A stretch of 64,000 bases of DNA. Source: Alphaproteobacteria bacterium. GTDB lineage: Bacteria > Pseudomonadota > Alphaproteobacteria > JABAAW01. The position numbers were made by a program, and so were the translations under genes. Shown piece by piece: positions 3,530-60,973 of the stretch. The stretch spans positions 239,645 to 303,644 of the forward strand of contig CBDCGG010000002.1 of NCBI GenBank assembly GCA_965216605.1, in the 5' to 3' direction. How positions within the stretch are numbered: the stretch's first letter is position 1; each line of letters opens with the position of its first letter. The notes beneath the pieces were generated by a model. That model made no database searches and was not told where the DNA came from. It saw only the letters and a program-made list of their open reading frames with translations.

Positions 3530-3708
3530 GAAAGACCCATCGAAGCAAAAGGAAGTATCTGCAGAGAGGGATGCAAAATATATGCCAGAGTCTGGTAAGA
3601 TAGGCAAAGGGCAGAAAAATCTTTGACAAGCGCATAAAAATCTTTAGCCTTGCGCGTAAAAAGGCAGTTCTATTTTTCCTTCTATTTTTCTTTGGCTGTT
3701 CTCTTGTT

Positions 3709-3744
3709 TTTAAGCTTAAATTTTCCCTTGCTTTTAAGCTTAAA
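3709..3744. promoter_or_regulatory. two copies of the perfect 12-bp palindrome TTTAAGCTTAAA (3709-3720 and 3733-3744) upstream of hicB; candidate operator pair
   Basis: Seen directly in sequence, 24 bp centre-to-centre, about 70-100 bp upstream of the hicB ATG. Type II antitoxins commonly autoregulate through palindromic operators. Confidence 0.4.
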
Positions 3745-3810
3745 ATCGACCACCATGCGCACGAGCCTTGTGTTTGTGGCTTTTATGCACTTCTCGTTTG
3801 GGATTTCACC

Positions 3811-4245
3811 ATGAAAATCAAAAGTTTTCCCTCCTCGTTGCCCCTCGGCGTAAGTTTGGATTCGGTTGAGATTTGGAAGAAGGGCGAGCAGTTTGTCGTC
3901 GTGATGTCTCCTCCGAAAGGAAAAAGAAGCAAAAAGCAAGCGACTCCTTTAGTTGTCTTCGATCTGAAAATGAGGGTCTACAAAGACGATAAAGACATTA
4001 TCGGAGAATGCCCTGCGTTGGATATCGTCAGCTGCGGCGACTTTGAGCAGGAAGCGCACAAAAACATTCAGGAAGCCGTCACGCTTTTCTTGGAAGATTG
4101 TGCCGAGCGTTCGACGCTCGATGCTGTTTTGGAAGATTGCGGCTTTCGAGAAATGCACAAGCCTTCTGAAGAATCTACCTCCCAATACAAGACGATGCAA
4201 GGATTGACAACGCAAAGCTTTCTAGGCTCGGTCGTTGCCGCCTAA
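3811..4245 (+). CDS. hicB: HicB-family antitoxin (RNase H-like fold)
   Basis: ...PLVVFDLKMRVYKDDKDIIGECPALDIVSCGDFEQEAHKNIQEAVTLFLED fits the HicB/UPF0150 N-terminal pattern (..Y.A.FE.DEDGGY....P..PGC.S.GDT.EEA..N..EA...HLE). 11-nt overlap with the downstream HicA ORF. Confidence 0.6.
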   Translation: MKIKSFPSSLPLGVSLDSVEIWKKGEQFVVVMSPPKGKRSKKQATPLVVFDLKMRVYKDDKDIIGECPALDIVSCGDFEQEAHKNIQEAVTLFLEDCAERSTLDAVLEDCGFREMHKPSEESTSQYKTMQGLTTQSFLGSVVAA

Positions 4246-4528
4246 GCAGCGAAAAACCTCTTCGTCAACAGACGGCAGCAAGGCATATAGTAAGTCAGGC
4301 ACTGTTCATTCGCGCGACCTCATTAGGTTCTTTGAACAGCACGGCTTCAAACAAACAAGAACAAAAGGCAGTCACGCGATACTGTCAAAACTTGGCATGC
4401 CGCGTTCCCTCCCTGTGCCTCACCCTAGGGAGCATAGAATCACAGGAAGGATCGTCAAAAACAACTTGAAAACCGCAGGCTTGACCGAAGAAGACTTGTT
4501 GCGCTTCTTGCAAAAAAAGAGCAAGTAA
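4235..4528 (+). CDS. hicA: HicA-family mRNA interferase toxin (YcfA-like); true start uncertain
   Basis: Core SRDLIRFFEQHGFKQTRTKGSHAILSKLGMPRSLPVPHPREHRITGRIVKNNLKTAGLTEEDL matches HicA (..L...GF...R..GSH........PHP.K.L..G....IL.QAGL). The first about 25 residues (K/S-rich) may be an artefact of the long ORF. Confidence 0.7.
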   Translation: MPPKQRKTSSSTDGSKAYSKSGTVHSRDLIRFFEQHGFKQTRTKGSHAILSKLGMPRSLPVPHPREHRITGRIVKNNLKTAGLTEEDLLRFLQKKSK

Positions 4529-6018: not shown

Positions 6019-6705
6019 GTGTCGCAAGGTGTGTCAAATGTTTTTCCCGCAGCAGAGCAACGGAGGTCGCCATCGCTATCGCCATCACCGATTCTCGCTC
6101 CTGCCGAGGCTGTGGTGGAGGCACGCAAGGTTGCCGAGGGGTGTCGGACGCTCGAAGAGCTCGAGCTTGCGGTGCGAGCCTTCGCTCTCTGTTCGTTGAA
6201 AGAGGGCGCGCGCAACACGGTCTTCGCCGAGGGCAATCCCAACGCCGAGCTAGTCGTCGTCGGCGAAGCGCCGGGGCGCGAGGAAGACGAACAGGGAAAA
6301 CCCTTCGTAGGCGAGAGCGGACAACTGCTTTCGCGCATGCTCCATGCGATCGGCATCGCTAGCCGCGAGCAATACCGCGTTACCAATTTGGTCTATTGGC
6401 GCCCACCGGGCAATCGTCAGCCGAGCTTGGACGAGATCGCCGTCTGCTACCCCTTCTTTCTGCGTCACATGGCGCTTGTGAAACCGCGTTGGCTTTTGTT
6501 GCTGGGCAATGTTGCGATGCAAAATGTTCTCTCTGAGCGAAGGGGGATCACGAAGCTACGCGGACAATTATTTCCGATCACGCTGGGGGCAACGCCTGTT
6601 GTGGCATTGCCCTCCTTTCATCCCTCCTACCTGCTGCGCACGCCCGTAAAGAAGGCGGCGGCGTGGCACGATCTACTAATGTTGCGACGCGCTATGAATA
6701 AATGA
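6019..6705 (+). CDS. uracil-DNA glycosylase family 4 catalytic core (likely the 3' part of a frameshifted longer gene starting about 5762)
   Basis: RNTVFAEGNPNAELVVVGEAPGREEDEQGKPFVGESGQLLSRML...VYWRPPGNRQP...LPSFHPSYLLR are the family-4 UDG signature blocks. The ORF 5762-6199 in another frame encodes an LL.W..EAG.D-type N-terminal segment typical of alphaproteobacterial family-4 UDGs, so a frameshift is inferred near 5950-6020. Confidence 0.75.
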   Translation: MSQGVSNVFPAAEQRRSPSLSPSPILAPAEAVVEARKVAEGCRTLEELELAVRAFALCSLKEGARNTVFAEGNPNAELVVVGEAPGREEDEQGKPFVGESGQLLSRMLHAIGIASREQYRVTNLVYWRPPGNRQPSLDEIAVCYPFFLRHMALVKPRWLLLLGNVAMQNVLSERRGITKLRGQLFPITLGATPVVALPSFHPSYLLRTPVKKAAAWHDLLMLRRAMNK

Positions 6706-6773
6706 TTTTGGAATAAGTGATTTTGGAATAAATGATTTTGGAATAAGTTATTTTGGAATAAGTGATTTTGGCA
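6701..6773. repeat. AT-rich 15-bp tandem repeat (aaNtgattttggaata), about 4.8 copies, between udg stop and thrC start
   Basis: Seen directly: aatgattttggaata / agtgattttggaata / aatgattttggaata / agttattttggaata / agtgattttgg. Confidence 0.9.
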
Positions 6774-6898
6774 GGTTGCATCGCACCCTAGAAAAGAGTA
6801 GAATGGTGCGAAGAAATAATATAAGCATGATACCTGATGGGGGGATTTATCCCCGACATGATCCACGACAAACACAACAACACGAGCGAGTTTGCAGC

Positions 6899-9322
6899 AT
6901 GAACTACATGCACTACAAATCCACGCGCGGGGGCGAGAAAAAAACCTTCGCGGATATTCTCAGTAGCGGTCTTGCTGCGGACGGCGGTCTGTACGAGCCT
7001 ACGAGTTGGCCGCACCACCGACGGCTACGAAGTTTCTTAGCGAGCGGCCCCACCTTCCCTGAGGTCGTGGGAGCGGTTGTGGGCGTTTTCGCCGGACGGC
7101 GCAGTTTGACGCATCTTGATTTTACGGCGATTGCTCGCAAGGCCTTTGAACCTTTTCACAGCCGCGCTGTCGTGCCTCTGCGCGAGGTGGAGCATAATCT
7201 TTGGCTGCTCGAACTTTTTCACGGACCGACGCTCTCGTTCAAGGATATTCCGTTGCAATTCTACGGACAGCTTCTGGAAGCCCTTGCGTCCGAGAGGAAA
7301 CGGCTGCTGATTATGATCGGCGCAACATCGGGCGACACGGGCTCTGCCGCCATCGAGGCGATGAAACCCGTTCGCGGCGTGCGATTGTTCATGCTGCATC
7401 CGAAGGATCGTATCTCTGCGTTGCAGCGCAAGCAAATGACAAGCGTCCAATCCCCGAACATCTGCAACATCGCCGTCGAGGGCAGCTACGACGATTGCCT
7501 CCGTCTGGTCAAGGCGGCGGCGCAATCGGAGGCGATCAACGCGCGCGGACAGGTCTCGGCGGTCAACTCTTTCAATTGGATTCGCATTGCCGTGCAAAGC
7601 GCTATCTACCTCTACGCAGCCCAACAGATTCCGCGACGCGCCAAGTCGGTGCGCTTTGCGCTCGCCAGCGGCAACTTCGGCAACGCTTACGCCGGCTATG
7701 TTGCCAAAAAGCTGGGTGCGAACATCGAGGGTCTTACGCTCGCGGTCAGTCACAACGACTTCCTGCATAACCTTTTTCAACAAGGCTCTGCTGCAAGCGG
7801 CGAGGTCGTCCCCAGCCTTGCGCCCAGCATCGACATCATGACGCCGAACAACGTCGAGCGATTGCTCTTCCGCAGCCTTGGCGACAGCGCGCGCCAATGG
7901 AGCAAGGTGCGCGAACAAGCGGAAGAAAGCGGGACGCTCCGCGTGCCGAAAGGCGCGTTGCGTTCGGAGATCTTTCGCTTTTTCCGCACGCAACGTTTCG
8001 ACGACGAGCAAATTCTCGAAGCAATGAGCCAAGCCTACGACAGCGTCGGAGAACCCCTTGACCCCCATTCTGCCATTGCGCTCAAGGCGGCAAAGGATGC
8101 GAGCTTCGAGAAGGAAAAGCAGGCGAAAAAGAAAAAGGCGCACGATATGTGCACCATCGCCCTTGCCACTGCTTCTGCGGCGAAGTTTCCTGAGACGGTG
8201 GAGCGCGCGATCGGGGCAAGACCGCACATGCCCTTGAGGCTTGCCGAGCTCGAGACGAGGGCGGAGGAGTACGAGACAATCGCTGCCGACTTCGAGGCGC
8301 TAGAAAGCATTATTGTTGCGCGATTGCAAAAACCTCTCGATTCGGACGCAAGTGTTCAGGATGCAAGTGTTCAGGATGCAAGCGTTCAGGCGGCAAGCGT
8401 TCAGGCCGCAAGCGTTCAGGAACCTGCAAGCGTTCAGGATGCAAGCGTTCAACCTGCGGAGGGACTTGCCGCAACCGCTGCGGGCTCGGCGACAATTGCC
8501 GAGGACGCTGTGGCAAGCGAAACAGCGTTAGAGGTAGCGCAAGAGGACGAGGAGAAGCGCGAGGAGGGAGAGGACGAAAATTTGGCAGGAATGCCCGAAA
8601 AGATGTCCGAGGCGAATCTTGCCATGGGTACTGCATCCGCCCTCTTCTCTTCGGTACAGCCTCCAGAGATGCCTGCTGTAGCTGCGTTGACGGATGAGGA
8701 AGATTCGTTAGAGAAGAAGATCGCCAAACTGAAAGAACAGACGGCGCAACTCGACGAGAGTCTCGACGATCCTATGACTGCTGCTTCCTCGTCTTTGACG
8801 AGCGATCCTTTCGCCGCTCCTTCCGCCGCAGATTTCTCAGCCACCTCTAGCTTGGAGGACACGCCGAGGGAGAGCGATCCTTTTGCGACACCCCTCCCCT
8901 CTCAGCAAGAAGACGAAACGCAAGAAGACGAGCAGACAGATTTCTCTGCAGAAATAGGAACGACAGAAACAGAAACGACGATGGAAACGATGGGAAGCGA
9001 CGGCGGCGATGATGGCATGGTTTCGTTGGCTGACGCGGCGGAGCAGGGGCAGGCATCGTTGCAAGAGAAGATCGCCAAGTTGAAAGAGCAGAGCGAGAAG
9101 CTTGATGAGGTAGCGGAGACGCCATACTCGCCTTTCGAGGAAGCAAAGGAGGAGACGAGCGAGATCGTTGGGGCAGAGAATTTCTTCTCTCAACCTGCGC
9201 CTCCATCTCAAAATGAGGCTGTCGAATCGAGCGAAACATCTTCTACGGCATCTTCTACGACACCCTCTACGACACCTTCTTGGGAAACACCTCTGGCGGA
9301 AGATCAGGAAGAAAAAACTTAA
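6899..9322 (+). CDS. thrC: threonine synthase (ThrC) fused in-frame to about 330 aa of acidic, repeat-rich low-complexity C-terminal tail
   Basis: MNYMHYKSTRGGEKKTFADILSSGLAADGGLYEP... is the ThrC N-terminal signature. The PLP fold continues to about residue 470 (..SAAKFPETV..). The frame then stays open through (DASVQ)x7, a duplicated KIAKLKEQ(T/S)xxLDE block and a long D/E/S/T-rich region to the stop at 9322. Confidence 0.8.
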   Translation: MNYMHYKSTRGGEKKTFADILSSGLAADGGLYEPTSWPHHRRLRSFLASGPTFPEVVGAVVGVFAGRRSLTHLDFTAIARKAFEPFHSRAVVPLREVEHNLWLLELFHGPTLSFKDIPLQFYGQLLEALASERKRLLIMIGATSGDTGSAAIEAMKPVRGVRLFMLHPKDRISALQRKQMTSVQSPNICNIAVEGSYDDCLRLVKAAAQSEAINARGQVSAVNSFNWIRIAVQSAIYLYAAQQIPRRAKSVRFALASGNFGNAYAGYVAKKLGANIEGLTLAVSHNDFLHNLFQQGSAASGEVVPSLAPSIDIMTPNNVERLLFRSLGDSARQWSKVREQAEESGTLRVPKGALRSEIFRFFRTQRFDDEQILEAMSQAYDSVGEPLDPHSAIALKAAKDASFEKEKQAKKKKAHDMCTIALATASAAKFPETVERAIGARPHMPLRLAELETRAEEYETIAADFEALESIIVARLQKPLDSDASVQDASVQDASVQAASVQAASVQEPASVQDASVQPAEGLAATAAGSATIAEDAVASETALEVAQEDEEKREEGEDENLAGMPEKMSEANLAMGTASALFSSVQPPEMPAVAALTDEEDSLEKKIAKLKEQTAQLDESLDDPMTAASSSLTSDPFAAPSAADFSATSSLEDTPRESDPFATPLPSQQEDETQEDEQTDFSAEIGTTETETTMETMGSDGGDDGMVSLADAAEQGQASLQEKIAKLKEQSEKLDEVAETPYSPFEEAKEETSEIVGAENFFSQPAPPSQNEAVESSETSSTASSTTPSTTPSWETPLAEDQEEKT
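8345..8452 (+). repeat. 15-bp in-frame tandem repeat x7 (gaYgcaagYgttcag, encoding DASVQ) inside the thrC tail
   Basis: Seen directly in sequence. Confidence 0.9.
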
Positions 9323-24582: not shown

Positions 24583-25065
24583 TCACACCGCGGTCATGCC
24601 CTCCCCCATCTCCGCAACCCCATGCACAACAATAATCACATGCGTCAACCCACCCTCATCACTCGTACTCATCTCCAAACAAGCCACACAACCCAATCCA
24701 CCCGCACGAGCCAAAATAATCCTCCGCGCACCCCCGCTCAATCGCACACAGGGCTTCCCGCTCGCAAAACGAACGCTCTCAATATCACGCCAATAAACCG
24801 CCGCATTGCCAACCCCAACACCCAGCCGCCTCACCCCCGTCCCTAATGCCTTCCCAATACACTCCTTCGCAGCAAAACAACTCGCTAAATAACTTACCCC
24901 TCGAACCCCCATACCACCTCCCATACCACGCCCCATGCCCCGACGACGCGCCTCCGCAACCTCGCCCTCCGCAAAAACACGCGATAAAAAACGATCGCCA
25001 TAACGCTCAACTAACCTAGCAATACGAGCATGCTCACACAAATCCGTGCCAATCCCCAAAATCAC
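24583..25065 (-). CDS. acpS: holo-[acyl-carrier-protein] synthase (AcpS) with in-frame Gly/Met repeat insertion
   Basis: MILGIGTDLCEHARIARLVERYGDRFLSRVFAEGE is the AcpS signature. Insertion RRGMGRGMGGGMGVRG from a short tandem repeat. Confidence 0.85.
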   Translation of the reverse strand: MILGIGTDLCEHARIARLVERYGDRFLSRVFAEGEVAEARRRGMGRGMGGGMGVRGVSYLASCFAAKECIGKALGTGVRRLGVGVGNAAVYWRDIESVRFASGKPCVRLSGGARRIILARAGGLGCVACLEMSTSDEGGLTHVIIVVHGVAEMGEGMTAV

Positions 25066-30377: not shown

Positions 30378-30490
30378 GGGCTGAAGTTGGGGGGCTGAAG
30401 TTGGGGGGCTGAGCTTGGGGGAGCTGAAGTTGGGGGCTAGAGAGGGCATAGGGGGATGCAGGGGGAAAATGGGGGATACAAATGGGGGAA
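30378..30490 (+). repeat. G-tract-rich tandem array (gggctgaagttgggg x about 4, then GGGGG every 10-12 bp) upstream of the OMP-like gene
   Basis: Seen directly; at least 9 runs of G4-G6 on the plus strand within about 110 bp. Confidence 0.85.
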
Positions 30491-31703: not shown

Positions 31704-32739
31704 ATGAGCGAAAAGAAGCAGAGGATCGATCCTATTCGGCGGGTACGCGGGATGCAGGATTTTCTGCCTGAGCGCGCGGCGGGGATGCGCAGGATTGCGC
31801 GGATTGCGGAGGATGTTGCGAGGCTGTACGGATTCGAGCGCATAGAGATTCCTATATTAGAGAGGGCAAGTTTGTATCGGAGGTCGTTGGGTTTAGGGAG
31901 CGATGTTGTGATGAAGGAGATGTATGCCTTTGAGGATAAAAAAGACAAGAATGACAATAGCGAGGAGTTATGTTTGCGTCCTGAGGGGACGGCGGGGGTG
32001 ATGCGGATGTTGATCGAGAACGGATTGACGCAGACGCTACCGCAGCGATGGTTTTACGAAGGGGCGATGTTTCGTAGGGAGCGTCCGCAGAAAGGACGAT
32101 TTCGCCAATTTCACCAGTGCGGCGTGGAGTTTTTGACTACTCACTACGATTTCATAACAGTCGACTTAGAGGTATTGAAATGCGCTTGGCATTTTTTGAA
32201 AGAATTAGGATTAGCAAAACAAGGATACTTAAATTCAATTGGCTTGGAACAATTGAGGAAAGAGCGCAATACAACATATTGCTTACGCAACACTTTCAAG
32301 AATATAGAACGATGCTCTTTGCTAGAGAGTGTTGAACGCTTCAACGAGGTCAACGCCTTGCGCATTTTTGATTCTAAAGACCCAAGACCAAGAGGCGATT
32401 GAAAACGCACCAGACTTTGAATTAAACGAAACATCAAAAGAAAATATTAAAACAATAAAAAGCTGGTTAACAGAACATTTAAACATACCTTATGAATCGA
32501 TTCTAGCTTGTGCGCGGATTGGATTATTACAGCAACCTTGTTACGAATTTGTTGAAAAAGGATCGACACGCGAACAAGCAACGCTGTTAGCGGGGGGGCG
32601 GTACAATGGCTTGTGCGAACAAATTAGCGGACGCGCTGACAACCCCCCTTTGACGGGCGTGGGCTGGGCAGCAGGATTGGAACGTTTGCTTAATTTATCT
32701 TCATTGTCGAGTAATTTTAATTCAGAGATAAAAATATAA
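31704..32739 (+). pseudogene. hisS: histidyl-tRNA synthetase (hisS), compositionally chimeric, frameshifted and 3'-degraded
   Basis: First frame (31704-32402): HisRS motif 1 and motif 2 (FRRERPQKGRFRQFHQCGVEFL). GC drops from about 60% to about 35% near 32150 inside the gene. Second frame (32329-32739) continues HisRS (..GGRYNGLCEQISG..PLTGVGWAAGLERL) after a frameshift. The anticodon-binding domain is not intact; only stop-interrupted remnants lie in the AT-rich DNA that follows. Confidence 0.6.
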
Positions 32740-33355
32740 AAATTTGTCTTTCTGATTCTATTGTTCCGATATTTGCAAATAAAATTCCTCTGTAAGCAAA
32801 AGAGTTTATGATTGAAAATTTTAGAAACAAATTACATTTTAAAATTCTTAAAAATAATAAAAATATTGTTCTTGTTCTTCTTAAAATGTCAAATATCATT
32901 ACGCTCAAAATGATTACAGAAAAAATAGAAGAAAATTCAAATTTTCTTATTGTTAGATCTATAAGTAGCGATAAGGAAAAATGATGACTTTACATTGTAT
33001 AATATTAAAAAAAGAGATCAAAGCATTATGTTGAGCGTTTGCAGACTTAATTTTATTGATCAATTAAACAAAGAACTAAAAGATTTCATTCAAGAAGAAA
33101 ATCTATAACCCCCTGATGGAAAAACAATTCTATCGGCATGGTGGGCGTTCGTGTGATGCATGCATCCAAGTCATGACACTTGGCGGATTAAAACATGCGT
33201 ATAGGCACGACGATAAGCAGTATGATCTGCCAAGTCGGGAATAAATTCCCCCGCCATGCCGAATCTACATGCATCCTATAAGCATCTCCCGCGTCGGTAA
33301 GAAAAAGGTTGGTTATTAATTTATTTGCTTTTTTGTTAAATTAAGTTATTGTATT
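32150..33355. other. AT-rich (about 30-38% GC) island in an otherwise about 60% GC region, containing the degraded hisS 3' end
   Basis: Compositional discontinuity seen directly. Short stop-interrupted reading frames with HisRS anticodon-domain-like residues (e.g. 32808-32981 MIENFRNKLHFKILKNNKNIVLVLL...). No intact ORF. Confidence 0.6.
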
Positions 33356-33359
33356 AACT

Positions 33360-34520
33360 ATGAGTACACAAGACGAGTTCTGGCGCGAGCGATTCGCAAC
33401 CTCCCTCCGTCAAGAGGAAACAACCCAACTCGCCCTAAACAATCCCACAATCCCTAATGCCGAGCGCGTAACCCTCGCAAAAACACTCGCATCCCTAACC
33501 CCCCTTTGTAACGAAATCCGCTCCTACAATAATCTAACCCAACAAAAAACCTCCGCCCAAAACCTCCTCGCCGAAGAACCAGATTTGGATAAAGCGCTCA
33601 AATCCCTCGCCTCAGAAGAAATTATAACCCTAGAAAAACAACGCACCGCCATCCTAGACAATATTCAAACCCTCATGCTCGACTCATCGGAGGAAGAAAT
33701 AAATACCGCCATCCTAGAAATTAGACCCGGTACAGGCGGCGAGGAAGCCGCCCTCTTCGCAGCCGACCTCCTATCTATGTACCAACGATACTCCGCAAAT
33801 AATTCCTACAAGTTCGAGGCTATCTCCATACAACAAACCCAACAAGGCGGTATCAAAGAAGCCATCGCTACCATCGAAGGACCCCGCGCCTTCACAAGAC
33901 TCTCGGTAGAATCAGGCGTGCATCGCGTCCAACGAATCCCCGAAACCGAAACACAAGGCAGGATCCATACCTCCGCCGCAACCGTCGCCATCCTACCGCA
34001 AACCTCAGAAGTACAACACCCCCTCCTAGAACAAGACCTCCGAACAGAAACCTTCCGCGCACAAGGCGCAGGAGGACAGCATGTCAATACAACCGACTCC
34101 GCCGTGCGTATAACCCATATACCCTCAGGACAAGTCGTACAATGCCAAGACGAAAAATCTCAACACCGAAACCGCGAAAAAGCACTCAAAGTTCTCACCG
34201 CACGAGTGCAACAACATATCCAAGATTCACAAAATGCCGAACGCTCCGCAACACGCAATTCACAAATAGGTAGTGGTGATCGCTCAGAGCGAATCCGTAC
34301 TTATAACTTTCCGCAAAACCGAATCACCGACCACCGCATCTCCCTCACCCTCTATAAACTCGATCGCATCATGCAAGGCGACGGGTTGGAGCTACTACTC
34401 AATCCCCTCGAAGCCGCCCGAAAATCCGAGCGCATAACCCAACTCCAAGAACAAAGCCCCCTGCCAAAAACCTCCCCCTCTCCCAACAAGCAAGCAAACA
34501 AAAAAAATGCCTCGCCTTGA
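33360..34520 (+). CDS. prfA: peptide chain release factor 1 (PrfA)
   Basis: GGQ motif (FRAQGAGGQHVNTTDSAVRITHIPSG), PxT-type decoding region, RF-1 length. Coding strand is strongly C+A-rich. Confidence 0.9.
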   Translation: MSTQDEFWRERFATSLRQEETTQLALNNPTIPNAERVTLAKTLASLTPLCNEIRSYNNLTQQKTSAQNLLAEEPDLDKALKSLASEEIITLEKQRTAILDNIQTLMLDSSEEEINTAILEIRPGTGGEEAALFAADLLSMYQRYSANNSYKFEAISIQQTQQGGIKEAIATIEGPRAFTRLSVESGVHRVQRIPETETQGRIHTSAATVAILPQTSEVQHPLLEQDLRTETFRAQGAGGQHVNTTDSAVRITHIPSGQVVQCQDEKSQHRNREKALKVLTARVQQHIQDSQNAERSATRNSQIGSGDRSERIRTYNFPQNRITDHRISLTLYKLDRIMQGDGLELLLNPLEAARKSERITQLQEQSPLPKTSPSPNKQANKKNASP

Positions 34521-35482
34521 GCTCAACAAACTCCGCGAACCTCATAAACTCCGCGACCTCCGCGACCTTCATAAAAATTGGCTACTTCGTCTGAAAGATG
34601 CCCACCTAGAAGATCCCCAAGCAGAACTCAACGCGCTGTGGCGAACAATAACAAACGATCCGCTACCCCTGCTCGCTTGCTCTGAAATCACCCCGCGCCT
34701 CGCACAACGCCTGACGCATCTAGTCGAACGCCGAGCCGCGCGCGAACCCCTTGCCCGAATCACCAAGCAGCGCGAGTTCGCCTCCCTGCCCTTCCATCTC
34801 AACAAAGCCTGCCTCATACCCAGAGCCGACAGCGAAACGCTACTAGAAGCTGTCCTTCATCTCACCGCCTCCCCGCACCCCGTTCGCACCATCCGAGAAC
34901 TGGGTTGCGGCAGCGGATGCATCGTCCTCGCCCTCGCTGCAAACCTCTGCGACAAACCTCAACGCCCCGCCCTGCAAGCCTGCGACATCTCCGCCCAAGC
35001 CCTCGTCGCCGCCCGCCTTAACGCACAAAGCCTACAAAAAAAACTTCCCGTCCAATTCTTTCGACAAAACTGGAGCGATAAAAAACATCGCGCAAAAAAT
35101 AACGCAAAAGAGATAACGGAAGAGCAACGGAAGAGATAACGGAAGAGATAACAGAAGATATCGAAGAAACCAACTCGACCTGCTCTTCGCCAATCCCCCC
35201 TACATTCGCCGCTTTGAGCGCATCATGCTCTCGCGCGAAGTTTCCCGCTTCGATCCACCGCTCGCGCTGGACGGCGGCTTCGATGGCATGCGCTCCTTTC
35301 GACACATCCTTCGCTACGCGCAACAAACTTTGCGCTGCGGAGGCTTTCTGCTGCTCGAACACGCCCCCGACCAAACGCGCATGCTCAAACCCCTCGCGCA
35401 ACGAAAACAATTCCGATACCTCCGAACGCTCAAAGATCTGGCAGGCAGGGACAGAGTCTCCGTTTTCAGAAAGCACTCCTAA
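34507..35482 (+). pseudogene. prmC: release factor glutamine methyltransferase PrmC/HemK, split by a frameshift inside a 12-bp tandem repeat
   Basis: Frame 1 (34507-35139) has the SAM-binding region (ELGCGSGCIVLALA). Frame 2 (about 35177-35482) has DLLFANPPYI...LDGG.DG. The shift falls inside cggaagagataa x about 5 at 35101-35160. Either a pseudogene or an assembly error in the repeat. Confidence 0.6.
35101..35160 (+). repeat. 12-bp tandem repeat (cggaagagataa-like) x about 5 inside prmC
   Basis: Seen directly; introduces TAA stops in one frame. Confidence 0.85.
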
Positions 35483-35590
35483 CAAAAAATCCTAACAAAA
35501 AGTCCTTGGCAAAAAATCCTTGCTTGATGCTCCCGCCTCGCCTATCCTAGTTTTAATAATTCCTCCCTTTGCACGAGCCCCTAAATATCC

Positions 35591-41140: not shown

Positions 41141-41188
41141 TGTCTATATTGCGCGCTGTCTATATTGCGCGCTGTCTATATTGCGCGT
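41141..41188. repeat. 16-bp tandem repeat x3 (tgtctatattgcgcgc) between thiolase stop and hemC start
   Basis: Seen directly. Confidence 0.9.
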
Positions 41189-42947: not shown

Positions 42948-43454
42948 CTACTCCAGCGCACCCCCCCTCTCAATCCGTCCCCCCGCACCCCCCAGCCGCA
43001 CCACCAACTCCCCCACCGAACACCCCAACGCCGGATCACAAAAATTCGACGCAATCTCCTCAAGCGGCAGCAAAACAAAAGCTCGCTCAGCTCTACAAGG
43101 ATGAGGAACAACTAATCCCCGCTCAACAATAATCCGCTGCTCGTAATACAATAAATCCAAATCAATCACACGCGGACCATAACGACGCTTCGATACAACC
43201 CTCCCTAACCCCCTCTCCAAATCCTTCAAACGCACAAGCAACGCCTCAGGCGATAAACTCGTCCGACAACAACAAACCGCGTTGAGAAAATCAGGCTGGT
43301 CAGAGTCATACATCGCACAACTCCGATACAACGACGAAAAACGCTCGACAATAATATCCCCCCTCGCACCCAAAGCCTCGCGCGCCGCCAACAAATGAAC
43401 CCTCTTATCACCAAGATTGCTGCCCAAAGCAACAAAAACCGGAGAATGCCACAT
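42948..43454 (-). CDS. folK: 2-amino-4-hydroxy-6-hydroxymethyldihydropteridine pyrophosphokinase (FolK/HPPK)
   Basis: MWHSPVFVALGSNLGDKRVHLLAAREAL...GPRVIDLDLLYY is the HPPK signature. The longer ORF-track start lies in the tandem repeat and is rejected. Confidence 0.85.
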   Translation of the reverse strand: MWHSPVFVALGSNLGDKRVHLLAAREALGARGDIIVERFSSLYRSCAMYDSDQPDFLNAVCCCRTSLSPEALLVRLKDLERGLGRVVSKRRYGPRVIDLDLLYYEQRIIVERGLVVPHPCRAERAFVLLPLEEIASNFCDPALGCSVGELVVRLGGAGGRIERGGALE

Positions 43455-43480
43455 CCTTCCCTCGAAAATATGTCGCCAAA

Positions 43481-43522
43481 GTATGCCGCAAGAGTATGCC
43501 GCAAGAGTATGCCGCAAGAGTA
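43481..43522. repeat. 13-bp tandem repeat x3 (gtatgccgcaaga) abutting and resembling the 3' end of tRNA-Thr
   Basis: gtatgccgcaaga x3, followed by gtatgccgaag, which is the tRNA 3' acceptor arm. Confidence 0.85.
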
Positions 43523-43594
43523 TGCCGAAGGGGAGATTCGAACTCCCGGCCTACTGATTACGAATCAGTTGCTCTACCCCTGAGCTACTTCGGC
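43523..43594 (-). tRNA. tRNA-Thr (anticodon CGT)
   Basis: Reverse complement GCCGAAGTAGCTCAGGGGTAGAGCAACTGATTCGTAATCAGTAGGCCGGGAGTTCGAATCTCCCCTTCGGCA; anticodon loop TTCGTAA. Confidence 0.8.
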
Positions 43595-52066: not shown

Positions 52067-52144
52067 TGCATCCGTCAAACAAAAAGCCCATCAAGACAAA
52101 AAGTCCATCGTACATCCCTAGTTCTGCTACAATCCCCCCAGCCC

Positions 52145-53587
52145 ATGACCATCCGCGTACGATTTCCCCCCAGCCCCACAGGAAGCCTGCACCTCGGTGG
52201 CGCACGCACCGCCCTCTACAACTTCCTCTACGCTAAAAAACACAATGGACACTTCCTCATCCGTATCGAAGATACCGACAAAAATAACCCCAACGCCATC
52301 ACCAATACAAAAAGCATCCTCAACGATTTACAATGGCTCGGTATCAAGCCCGATAGCAAATATACCCTCCAATCACAAAACCTTGTCCGCCACAAAGAAG
52401 TAGCCTCCCTCCTCCTGAAAGCAGGTAAAGCCTTTCGATGCTACGACAGCGTCAAACACAACAACAAAAACGCAGCCCACACAGAAGCACGCTCCCGTAG
52501 CGATGTCTTCAGAAGTCCCTGGCGCGATAAATCACTCACCGACGCTCCCAAAGATACCGCCTCCGTCGTTCGCCTCAAAGTACCGCTCGAAGGAACCCTG
52601 ACCATCGACGATAGCGTCAAAGGAAAAATCACCTCCCAAAATACACAAATCGACGACTTCGTCCTGCTCCGCTCCGACGACTCCCCCACCTACATGCTCT
52701 CAGTAGTCGTCGACGACTACGATTCCCAAATCACCCACATCATCCGCGGCGACGACCACCTCACCAATACCTTCCGCCAACAAGCCCTCTACGATGCTTG
52801 CGTCAGCGCAAAAATTTTCTCCAACCAACAAGCCAAACCCCTCTACGCACACATCCCCATGGTGCTGGACGAAGAAGGAAACCGCCTCTCTAAACGCAAA
52901 GGCTCGCGCAGCATCAACGACTTTCAAAACGATGGCGTCCTACCCGAAGCATTGGTGAACTTCCTGCTCCGCCTCGGCTGGGGACACAAAGACATGGAAA
53001 TCTTCTCGCTACAACAAGCCATCGACCTGTTCGACCTCAAAGGCTTGAGTGCTGCGCCCGCACGCATCTCCTACGCACGCCTAGAAAACCTGAACGCACA
53101 CTACCTACGCACGATGCCGCTCAGCGAGTTGCAATCTCGCTTACAACCCTTCCTGCCCGCCGACACCGATGAGAAATCTCGCAAGCGATTCTTCCAAGGG
53201 CTCGAAGGCTTGCGACAACGCGCGACAACCCTACGCAACCTTGTCGCACGCGGCGAGTTTTACTTCCAACCCCCTCGCCTCCCATTGCCCGATGCCAAGG
53301 CGCAAAAAGTTTGGGACGAAGCACGCCTCAACCTTCCTCCCCAAGCTTTGTCACAACTCAGTGAAAATTTGGCAGCAACCCCCGACGCAGACTGGCAAGC
53401 CGATGCCCTCGCACAAACGATGCGCGAGTCAGCACAAAACCTTTCGCTCGGCTTCGGCGACCTCGCCAAACCCCTGCGCGCCGTCTGCACAGGACGCATG
53501 GATTCGCCCGACCTCAGCGAAGTGCTTGCCGTGCTAGGAAAACAACAAACCCTAGAACGACTGCAACAAGCACTCGCGCAACGCTAG
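52145..53587 (+). CDS. gltX: glutamyl-tRNA synthetase (GltX)
   Basis: RFPPSPTGSLHLGGARTALYNFLYAK (HIGH region), KLSKRKGS (KMSKS-like). Coding strand strongly C+A-rich. Confidence 0.9.
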   Translation: MTIRVRFPPSPTGSLHLGGARTALYNFLYAKKHNGHFLIRIEDTDKNNPNAITNTKSILNDLQWLGIKPDSKYTLQSQNLVRHKEVASLLLKAGKAFRCYDSVKHNNKNAAHTEARSRSDVFRSPWRDKSLTDAPKDTASVVRLKVPLEGTLTIDDSVKGKITSQNTQIDDFVLLRSDDSPTYMLSVVVDDYDSQITHIIRGDDHLTNTFRQQALYDACVSAKIFSNQQAKPLYAHIPMVLDEEGNRLSKRKGSRSINDFQNDGVLPEALVNFLLRLGWGHKDMEIFSLQQAIDLFDLKGLSAAPARISYARLENLNAHYLRTMPLSELQSRLQPFLPADTDEKSRKRFFQGLEGLRQRATTLRNLVARGEFYFQPPRLPLPDAKAQKVWDEARLNLPPQALSQLSENLAATPDADWQADALAQTMRESAQNLSLGFGDLAKPLRAVCTGRMDSPDLSEVLAVLGKQQTLERLQQALAQR

Positions 53588-56254: not shown

Positions 56255-56305
56255 GGCAGGTTTTTATTGGCTGTTGGTCTTGTCATTTTTTCCGTGCAGA
56301 GAAGG

Positions 56306-56425
56306 GACGGCAACGCCCTACTCTTCCACGCCACGAGGACGCAGTACCATCGGCGCAGGAGGCTTTCACGTTCGAGTTCGGAAAGGGATCGGGTGTTGAG
56401 CCCTCCGCTATGATCGCCGCCCCGT
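56306..56425 (-). rRNA. rrf: 5S ribosomal RNA
   Basis: Reverse complement ...GGCGGCGATCATAGCGGAGGGCTCAACACCCGATCCCTTTCCGAACTCGAACGTGAAAGCCTCCTGCGCCGATGGTACTGCGTCCTCGTGGCGTGGAAGAGTAGGGCGTTGCCGTC matches the 5S consensus (CCGAACTC.GAAGTGAAAC, GCGCCGATGGTA, GAGAGTAGG). Confidence 0.85.
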
Positions 56426-56563
56426 CACTGCACGGAGATAAAGTATAAATTTTTTGCGACAAATTTGTCGTTTTTTGTTTTGAGAACGCTTTTCAATTTG
56501 AATTTCTGTCACAGCACTATCTATGGGCTGAGGCGCTGCTTGCGTTTTGTCGATGCAAAGAGC

Positions 56564-59410
<2,847 letters not shown>

Positions 59411-59760
59411 GCTCTTTGCTGACAATTCGCAAGCAGCGCCTCAACTCATAGAGGGCTGCTGTTGACAGAAATTGTGCGTTCTTTCCGATTTCACAAAACT
59501 CCGTGCGCAACACGCCGACAGAGCCAGAAAATCGAATTCTTACAAACGATGGACTTGTTCAATAGTTCCCCCCCGAAACGCCTCTCGTATTGCAAATACA
59601 AGCAGCGCGAAGCCCATAATAGCCGAGCCAGTACTAGAGCGCAAGATAAAAAGCACAAAAAACGCCTCAACGATAAAAAAACATGCAAGCGAAAATTTTC
59701 CCATCCTCCCCTCTTTTGCTCCCCTCTTTGTGCGCCTTGCCTCAAAGCAACTTGCGTAGA

Positions 59761-59841
59761 AAACGACGCTCTCATGTCGCATTCTCACTTCCGATAACGC
59801 TTCTCAGGCTTACGGAACGCTCCGCTAGCGATGCAACAGAA
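59761..59841 (-). repeat. partial, internally deleted duplicate of a 23S segment (the region flanking the helix-45 IVS) in the rRNA leader
   Basis: ctcatgtcgcattctcacttccgata...aggcttacggaacgctccgctagcgatgcaacagaatctgtccgtcg matches 58052-58154 except for a 28-nt internal gap, same orientation as the rRNA. Confidence 0.8.
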
Positions 59842-59864
59842 TCTGTCCGTCGGCAATCATTTCA

Positions 59865-60122
59865 TCATTTAAATGGTGCTTCAACGCTTTTAGGACTCAA
59901 AGTCCACCCAGCAAAAGCATCCTTCTTTGCTTTTATACGAGCCGTGTAAACCTCTCCTGTGTCGGGGTGTGTTATCTCTACACGGTAATTGCCACTACCA
60001 TTAAGAACCGCCGCATCAGGTGTCAGACCCTTGGCCACCACAACACCTGTTTCCTCATTGAACACAGAATACTTCGCTCTGACCTCTCCCGCAGAACAGA
60101 ACATTTTGCGCTCTGCTTCCAC
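59865..60122 (-). CDS. small hypothetical protein; upstream out-of-frame lipoprotein signal (SLALLGGC) suggests a frameshifted small lipoprotein gene
   Basis: 85-aa ORF (GTG start) ...NGSGNYRVEITHPDTGEVYTARIKAKK.... A lipobox-containing signal peptide lies directly upstream in another frame. Lower GC than surroundings. Confidence 0.35.
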   Translation of the reverse strand: MEAERKMFCSAGEVRAKYSVFNEETGVVVAKGLTPDAAVLNGSGNYRVEITHPDTGEVYTARIKAKKDAFAGWTLSPKSVEAPFK

Positions 60123-60155
60123 TCAACACACCCCCCTAACAAAGCAAGCGAAACG

Positions 60156-60455
60156 CTAACAGAAAAAGCAACAAAGGCGACTCGCGCCATTCATCATCGA
60201 CCCTCGGAAGCAAAACATTCCTCCGCTTCGTTTTTGGAGCAATCGATAACAATAGGAGGTTGGTTTTTCCAGAAGTAAATGACTCTCGTTATTCACGCCC
60301 AAAACGCTCCCACTACCCTGAAACCACTGAGTTTGCTCGAAAAGTGTATTGCGAGAGACCGCGAATTTGTTGTCGCCCAACGGCGCAACTCCTGATGAAG
60401 TCGTAGCTATTTCTTTCGTGGTGCAACCGCCGCTAATGCCAGCCGCTCCAACCAC
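60156..60455 (-). CDS. small putative lipoprotein (signal peptide + lipobox ISGGC), no canonical start codon found
   Basis: Extended frame KIFSFLAVVGAAGISGGCTTKEIATTSSGV...; mature part is homologous to the frameshifted paralog at 60480-60722. Confidence 0.35.
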   Translation of the reverse strand: MVGAAGISGGCTTKEIATTSSGVAPLGDNKFAVSRNTLFEQTQWFQGSGSVLGVNNESHLLLEKPTSYCYRLLQKRSGGMFCFRGSMMNGASRLCCFFC

Positions 60456-60479
60456 CGCAAGAAAAGAAAAAATCTTGCA

Positions 60480-60722
60480 AAATTCTTCTTGAAAACTTCC
60501 TCACTATTTACCAAGTTCTACGCAGACATTACCCTTGGAGCAATCGTAAACTATGGGAGTCTTGTTTCCACTCTTTCCCTTGACATTGGTATACTTTTGA
60601 AACCACAACCCTGCCTTGCCAAAGAAGTGATTCCAGAAGAGTAGTAGTATCAGTCAAAAGAACACCCCCCAAGTGTAACTACACCGACAAGAGCTGCAGC
60701 TGCGATAATAGATTTTTTCATA
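60480..60722 (-). pseudogene. frameshifted paralog of the small lipoprotein gene
   Basis: MKKSIIAAAALVGVVTLGGCSFD-stop; the +1 frame continues LLTDTTTLLESLLWQGRVVVSKV...SHSLRLLQG, alignable with 60156-60455 (LFEQTQWFQGSGSVLGV...SYCYRLLQKRSGG). The shift lies in a T-run just after the lipobox. Confidence 0.4.
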
Positions 60723-60973
60723 TCATCCTCCTTCAAGGATTTTGAGGAAACTGCCTTTCGCGCTCGTGGCTAAGGCACTGCCTTATAGCATTCCATCAGA
60801 GGCATACTCTCTCGGCAGATAGGGCGACAATAGCACTAAAAAAGGTTTTGTCAACCTTTTTTTTGCTTTTTTTCCGCGTCTCCTTTTTCCTTGTTTGTGC
60901 GCGCGTTGGAGTTGGGAACAGACAACTCGACGTGCGCCTTGCCTCTCGGCACGCCTTGCGCCATAGTGGAGGG

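Follow-up and report, generated by a model that had tools for sequence, protein, structure and literature searches.

A frameshift within a tandem repeat separates the two halves of prmC beside an intact prfA: a probable young loss-of-function allele in an alphaproteobacterial contig

The prfA-prmC locus

PrmC (HemK) methylates the glutamine of the GGQ motif in the release factors RF1 and RF2 and thereby speeds peptide release. Here we analyze the prmC gene in a stretch of 64,000 nucleotides (nt) from an Alphaproteobacteria bacterium (GTDB lineage JABAAW01; assembly GCA_965216605.1, contig CBDCGG010000002.1, positions 239,645 to 303,644 of the forward strand). This whole stretch is referred to below as the window, and all coordinates are window positions. 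The S-adenosylmethionine (SAM) motif and the NPPY catalytic motif of the enzyme are both present in the DNA, but never in one translatable open reading frame (ORF) of the window copy. As the initial annotation of the sequence had reported, the SAM-binding half and the NPPY half lie in different frames, and both ORFs and family matches bear this out. The frame is lost within a tandem repeat, and the most probable explanation, in our view, is that the gene was inactivated very recently.

The 5' part of prmC (34507-35139, + strand, frame 1) encodes 210 amino acids (aa) comprising the N-terminal helical domain, the SAM motif ELGCGSGC and the sequence ACDIS. It matches positions 23-151 of the 253 positions of the PrmC model TIGR03534 (E 3e-31) and is 81% identical to residues 1-196 of the PrmC of a close relative, L081. 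Frame 1 stops at a TAA codon (35137-35139) that falls within the repeat, where the sequence reads AGA TAA (35134-35139); a further TAA follows at 35149. That the repeat brings in-frame TAA codons had been noted before, and we find that frame 1 meets both of them after an 11-nt repeat unit. The 3' part (35117-35482, + strand, frame 2) contains the NPPY motif (codons at 35192-35203) and the C-terminal half of the methyltransferase fold. It matches TIGR03534 over positions 154-252 of 253 (E 4e-23) and is 78-80% identical to the corresponding part in L081 and a second relative, L082. Frame 2 is open from 35117 only, with a stop at 35114, and the ORF list shows no ATG, GTG or TTG in this frame from 35117 until 35225, which is already beyond NPPY.

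Scored separately, the two halves reach 108.8 and 82.1 bits on TIGR03534 against a cut-off of 199.1. A protein repaired by removing one base scores 188.2 bits, which is still under this cut-off, whereas it passes the HemK subfamily model TIGR00536 (160.7 against 115.5). The intact relatives score 193-198 bits on TIGR03534, so that the whole clade (188-198 bits) stays slightly under the equivalog cut-off. Judging from motif content, linkage to prfA and the HemK-family score of the repaired protein, the gene is PrmC/HemK. The paralog check covered the window, where we found a single tblastn locus and a single [ND]PP[YFW] motif in all six frames, and no second prmC.

Immediately upstream, prfA (33360-34520, + strand) encodes an RF1 of 386 aa that carries the GGQ motif, the target of PrmC methylation. 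It was described as intact in the initial annotation, which agrees with a full-length match to NF001859 (422 bits against a cut-off of 400, profile positions 10-346 of 347). The protein is 90% identical to RF1 of L081 and L082 in a single high-scoring segment pair (HSP), and the best matches in species-representative genomes are only 43-55% identical. The 3' end of prfA overlaps the start of prmC by 14 nt, and the same 14-nt overlap is seen in the relatives. The order prfA-prmC-DUF4167 is common to L081-L084. In L081-L083 hisS lies upstream of prfA, and these three longer loci read hisS-prfA-prmC-DUF4167-hemY; the short L084 contig covers prfA-prmC-DUF4167 only.

Structure of the repeat array

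The frame changes in an imperfect 12-nt tandem array (35101-35161, + strand) with the consensus AACGGAAGAGAT, read in its natural phase as AGA GAT AAC GGA (R-D-N-G). The array lies in a loop flanked by two conserved segments, NWSDKK on one side and LDLLFANPPY on the other. Tandem Repeats Finder (TRF) reports it at 35108-35158 with a period of 12, 4.3 copies, 87% matches, 5% indels and a score of 81. Parsing the units manually, we distinguish a first unit of 14 nt (35101-35114, + strand, AACGCAAAAGAGAT), an aberrant second unit of 11 nt in which GAT is changed to GC (35115-35125, + strand, AACGGAAGAGC), two perfect AACGGAAGAGAT units (35126-35137 and 35138-35149, + strand) and a diverged fifth unit (35150-35161, + strand, AACAGAAGATAT). 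An earlier count of about five copies is therefore right as to the array but not as to clean copies: two units are perfect and three are imperfect.

In the window this region exceeds that of L081 by a net 49 nt (+1 modulo 3). Following the reading phase through the array, the upstream flank is in frame 1, the first unit has its natural phase in frame 0, and the later units together with the NPPY flank are in frame 2. The 18-mer at 35103-35120 (CGCAAAAGAGATAACGGA) agrees at 17 of 18 bases with the in-frame sequence CGC AGA AGA GAT AAC GGA of L082. Homology thus points to two candidate lesions. The first would be in the A4 run at 35106-35109 (+ strand), where an in-phase array needs A5 (GCA AAA / AGA GAT). 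The second would be the change of GAT to GC at 35124-35125 (+ strand) in the 11-nt unit 35115-35125, at which the natural phase passes from frame 0 to frame 2. Since exact 12-nt duplications cannot change the phase, two separate 1-nt losses are suggested, and the most parsimonious history would be an array of four in-phase R-D-N-G units that subsequently suffered both. Restoring both putative lesions gives ...KKHRAKNNAKRDNGRDNGRDNGRDNRRYRRNQLDLLFANPPY..., while restoring either alone yields no ORF.

The frame can also be repaired more simply. An exhaustive in silico analysis shows that deleting any one base in the interval 35114-35139 (+ strand) results in a continuous PrmC ORF of 324 aa. Whole units have no such effect: the ORF was never restored by removing one or two 12-nt units or by adding one, and the proposed check that removal of an integral number of units would restore the frame thus failed in silico for one and two units.

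Close relatives and the variable loop

Relatives were found by a database search with the conceptually joined PrmC protein, and four of them (L081-L084) were fetched as DNA. PrmC is continuous, with 283-324 aa, in all seven close relatives, whose identity over the aligned region is 66-79%. Besides these, the search returned a 210-aa protein identical to the window fragment; among the 120 best database hits it alone is encoded on a contig of 1,625,166 bp, presumably the source genome. A degenerate DNA pattern for the NPPY flank gave no match in the JGI metagenomes.

The protein alignment shows that the segment between NWSDKK and LDLLFANPPY differs in length and sequence in every lineage. At the DNA level, the loop has a 24-nt tandem duplication in L082, a 12-nt one in L084 and none in L081; tandem duplications thus occurred independently in the loop of three lineages (L082, L084 and the window). 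A comparison of L081 and L082 is informative in this respect. Their prmC genes differ by indels of 24 nt in the loop and 27 nt near the N-terminus, both in frame, and are 93% identical in the 5' block holding the 27-nt indel and 95-100% identical elsewhere. Given this near-identity, such in-frame indels must appear within very little evolutionary time. Once the window protein is repaired, its loop counts 32 residues, against 7 in Escherichia coli HemK (PDB 1T43 and 2B3T; W168 to Q176), and its alignment with 1T43 extends over residues 44-168 and 176-274, on either side of the loop.

A second variable repeat is located at the PrmC N-terminus. In the window it consists of a 9-nt unit (CTCCGCGAC, 2.2 copies, 34549-34568) that is in frame and reads KLRDLRDL. 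Its length differs among the relatives, as seen in the 27-nt indel between L081 and L082 and in a 24-nt repeat in L083.

Tandem repeats across the window

The prmC repeat is real and more than a chance occurrence, yet it is one of many in the genome. In the window 19 arrays reach a TRF score of 50 or more, whereas 20 dinucleotide-preserving shuffles gave 0.3 on average. In 14 of the 19 the period is divisible by 3 and the array lies in or at ORFs. The other five have periods of 13, 13, 14, 16 and 17, are not multiples of 3, and are all intergenic (30378-30436, 35477-35522, 41141-41187, 43469-43527 and 52075-52109). Related loci are equally rich in repeats, with 5-6 arrays per 7 kb in L081-L083. 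Because of the excess over shuffled sequence, the split between period and location, and the repeat-rich relatives, we conclude that short tandem duplication is a property of the clade and that selection normally purges frame-breaking arrays from genes. Among the arrays in coding sequence, the one in prmC is the exception.

Another repeat-bearing ORF is found at 6698-9322 (+ strand, 848-874 aa). Here the match to threonine synthase is confined to residues 141-505. The ORF has a 15-nt repeat of five copies at its 5' end (6696-6771) and one of seven copies at 8344-8451, and about 370 further residues have no family match; a fusion, or a tail extended by repeats, may account for this.

Selection, sequence quality and decay of hisS

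Both halves of prmC still show the signature of purifying selection. Nei-Gojobori ratios of nonsynonymous to synonymous substitution rates (dN/dS) between the window and its relatives are 0.21-0.26 for the N-terminal half and 0.17-0.21 for the C-terminal half. Pairs of intact relatives that are not near-identical give corresponding values of 0.27-0.32 and 0.09-0.19, which is much the same range. Over its 975 nt, prmC contains no further stop or indel beyond the break in the array.

The surrounding sequence is generally of good quality. In a 20-kb syntenic block of a related contig (L086), 17 of 19 genes are found in the window as single collinear HSPs. Some 30 of the 50 other ORFs scanned have near-full-length profile matches, among them PolA (984 aa), ProS, LolCE, PdxJ, MttB, HemC, HemD, thiolase, GltX and PurB; the remainder have no family match. 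Only two of approximately 45 genes in the window are broken, namely prmC and hisS.

The hisS-like pseudogene (31704-33105, + strand) lies directly upstream of prfA and has numerous small indels of a length not divisible by 3. In tblastn the reading frame switches at 32384, at 32740 and beyond; aligned with the DNA of L082, the gene has at least 10 indels whose length is not a multiple of 3. The 450 nt at its 5' end retain 95% identity to L081 and L082. The 3' two-thirds are AT-rich, with a GC fraction of 0.21-0.43 against 0.55 for the window. This 3' part is mosaic in the relatives as well: L081 and L082 are only 41-68% identical there, against 95-100% through most of prfA-prmC-DUF4167. Given that hisS is a pseudogene with multiple lesions, real gene decay is under way at this locus.

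A probable young loss-of-function allele

Taken together, we consider it probable that the window carries prmC as a very recently arisen loss-of-function allele, in other words a pseudogene in the making. Among the options raised in the initial annotation, loss of the methyltransferase is the best supported: the relatives are intact, no protein with both the SAM motif and NPPY can be made, and the neighboring hisS has decayed.

The events leading to this allele may have been as follows. The clade would continually gain and lose short tandem duplications, with the surface loop between beta-3 (NWSDKK) and beta-4 (LDLLFANPPY) of PrmC as a hot spot. In the lineage of the window the unit AGA GAT AAC GGA would have been amplified to about four copies, which was presumably harmless because 12-nt units preserve the frame. 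Slippage then would have hit the array, the likeliest pair of lesions being A5 to A4 (35106-35109) and GAT to GC (35124-35125), with a net effect of +1 modulo 3. Translation coupled to prfA is predicted to terminate at the TAA at 35137 after 210 residues. Because the NPPY half lacks its own start codon, no active methyltransferase would be made. That these lesions are real instead of consensus errors, and that there were two of them, is what we infer from the sequence. Since dN/dS is still about 0.2 in both halves, the loss would be very recent and not a case of advanced decay.

Several observations weigh against this reading. PrmC is widely conserved, so its loss requires either tolerance or a substitute. 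A dN/dS of about 0.2 in both halves fits a recent break, but it fits an artefact or a still-functional gene equally well. From the signs that characterize a pseudogene, disruption relative to intact orthologues is present, while relaxed selection and further lesions are absent. Finally, the parse into two lesions is drawn from homology, whereas the minimal repair takes a single-base deletion.

If the loss is real, slower or leakier termination is to be expected in this bacterium. The locus would then show a gene inactivation caught nearly at its onset, in which harmless in-frame growth of the repeat, in a loop that tolerates it, was turned into a frameshift via one or two slippage errors. The high rate of tandem duplication in the clade would then feed protein length variation and gene loss alike.

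Alternative explanations

The main competitor is an error in the deposited sequence: the real genome would have a continuous prmC, and the purine-rich, low-complexity repeat would contain a small indel error. We regard this as rather unlikely. One base suffices to obtain the perfect 324-aa ORF, and purifying selection in both halves without any other lesion is what a functional gene would show. Moreover, one of the two candidate lesions is a homopolymer change from A5 to A4, and changes in homopolymer length are the commonest long-read error. Metagenome data of this kind may indeed suffer from such errors, since prfA and prmC are fragmented in a related contig. On the other hand, the remainder of the window is clean, with 17 of 19 syntenic genes collinear and long genes uninterrupted. 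The phase of the homology implies two lesions within 20 nt, and fixing only one leaves prmC broken; because the parse points to two separate 1-nt lesions, an artefact becomes less likely. The change of GAT to GC also combines a substitution with a deletion, which is atypical for consensus errors. As for the misassembled repeat proposed earlier, this has to be divided into two cases. A wrong copy number cannot produce the shift, as whole 12-nt units never alter the frame, and this form of misassembly is rejected; what is left of the proposal is the single-base consensus error, to which we attach the same minor probability.

The fragmented contig mentioned above (L085, ena:ERZ25069828:contig_11) is related to L083. 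Its prfA and prmC are distributed over short ORFs, which looks like the result of indel errors in the assembly.

A second alternative is a reversible switch, in which slipped-strand mispairing would generate ON and OFF alleles of prmC in the population and thereby modulate termination efficiency. This seems improbable to us. Simple copy-number switching, as suggested in the initial annotation, is not supported and is rejected in that form, because gain or loss of the nominal 12-nt unit is neutral to the frame. Only a duplication of the 11-nt unit or a deletion of 25 nt (35101-35125) would toggle the gene: both restore the full ORF with NPPY in silico. The 11-nt unit and the next unit share a 10-nt direct repeat (AACGGAAGAG), and repeat gain and loss are very frequent in the clade even at 1-2% divergence; the preserved dN/dS, too, would suit a gene that is ON much of the time. 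However, the 10-11-nt element is present in two copies only, unlike the long perfect tracts of known contingency loci, and the length polymorphisms seen in the relatives are all multiples of 3.

Recoding is still less credible, and we would give it only a very small chance. In this scenario a ribosome paused at the UAA at 35137 would slip by -2, from AGA at 35134-35136 to AGA at 35132-35134, and continue in the NPPY frame. The AGAGA-TAA sequence (35132-35139, + strand) is the only site where the P-site tRNA could hypothetically re-pair into that frame. It permits perfect cognate -2 re-pairing, and the simulated slip product is a PrmC of 325 aa with NPPY. Copies of the purine-rich GGAAGAG are found upstream, AGA is rare in the window (3.2 per 1000 codons in 11 confirmed genes), and both halves are still under purifying selection, which a shifty stop, if true, could explain. 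It might even be imagined, at the same very low probability, that under-methylated release factors slow down termination at AGAGA-UAA, that the resulting -2 slip yields full-length PrmC, and that a feedback loop like that of prfB is thus obtained. Yet the arrangement is not conserved, PrmC being encoded in a single frame in all seven relatives; bacteria seldom show efficient -2 frameshifting; and the AGAGA-UAA motif arises incidentally from the sequence of the repeat unit. A +1 slippery site is absent as well: one resembling that of prfB is rejected since 35117-35136, where both open frames overlap, contains no re-pairing codon. Transcriptional slippage at A8 (35036-35043) or at the A6 runs (35080-35085 and 35094-35099) was likewise considered and rejected, because the frame-2 stop at 35114 comes after all of these runs, and slippage at the runs alone cannot join the frames.

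A split enzyme, with two separately translated polypeptides joining to form an active methyltransferase, is hardly conceivable even though both halves are intact and conserved, and it is rejected here, since a C-terminal fragment could only be initiated separately without NPPY (no frame-2 start in 35117-35225), the cut falls between beta-3 and beta-4 of a Rossmann-type fold, and no relative is split.

We thus return to the young loss-of-function allele as the favored explanation. Unless the improbable recoding or switching holds, no new mechanism is involved, and the event is of an ordinary and well-known kind.

Other features of the window

Across the window the keto/amino skew at third codon positions is strong and gene-specific, with an anti-correlated AT3 skew. 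Values of (G3-C3)/(G3+C3) on the coding strand range from -0.67 for prfA (33360-34520) and -0.64 for gltX (52145-53587) to +0.73 for acpS (24583-25065) and +0.80 for folK (42948-43454), to name four genes. Neighbors on the same strand can differ in sign (yggT and hisS against prfA and prmC, and ksgA against gltX), and the skew is therefore not explained by replication or by coding strand.

Genes for 23S and 5S rRNA are present at 56305-59411 (- strand). Upstream of these no 16S gene or spacer tRNAs are found within the window, which means that the rRNA operon is unlinked. The adjoining 1.3 kb on the upstream side (59423-60746) contain short ORFs only, none with a family match. Lastly, a small ORF at 4226-4528 (+ strand) matches the HicA toxin family (PF07927, E 3e-10). 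It adjoins an unassigned ORF at 3604-4245, and the two may form a toxin-antitoxin pair, with flagellar genes on one side and an aminotransferase gene on the other.

Relation to known systems

One close counterpart is E. coli HemK (PDB 1T43; complex with RF1 2B3T). The window gene has the N-terminal helical domain, the GxGxG SAM motif and NPPY in the same order, and like other PrmC/HemK genes it lies immediately downstream of prfA and overlaps it. It differs in that its halves are in different frames and in the size of the beta-3/beta-4 loop (32 residues after repair against 7).

A comparison with prfB, the RF2 gene, comes to mind because there too a gene for termination has an in-frame stop (CUU UGA C) and continues in the +1 (equivalently -2) frame, and because a feedback loop through release-factor activity is conceivable for prmC as well. 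The prfB frameshift site, however, is widely conserved, whereas prmC has no +1 slippery codon of the CUU-U type, offers only -2 re-pairing from AGA to AGA, and shares this arrangement with none of the seven relatives.

Contingency loci such as the mod methyltransferase genes of Haemophilus and Neisseria resemble prmC in that a tandem repeat within the ORF of a methyltransferase marks the site of frame loss. These loci consist of long perfect tracts with a unit length that is not divisible by 3. The prmC array, with its 12-nt unit and two perfect copies, differs from them in both unit length and tract length.

A further parallel is offered by genomes with many actively variable short tandem repeats, of which Ehrlichia ruminantium is an example, and by the single-lesion pseudogenes of host-restricted bacteria. 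The window shares with these its 19 arrays where 0.3 are expected, in-frame length polymorphism between near-identical relatives, and pseudogenes situated beside intact essential genes. Unlike the Ehrlichia-type and host-restricted cases, however, this alphaproteobacterial DNA has a GC content of approximately 55% and only two of its roughly 45 genes are broken.

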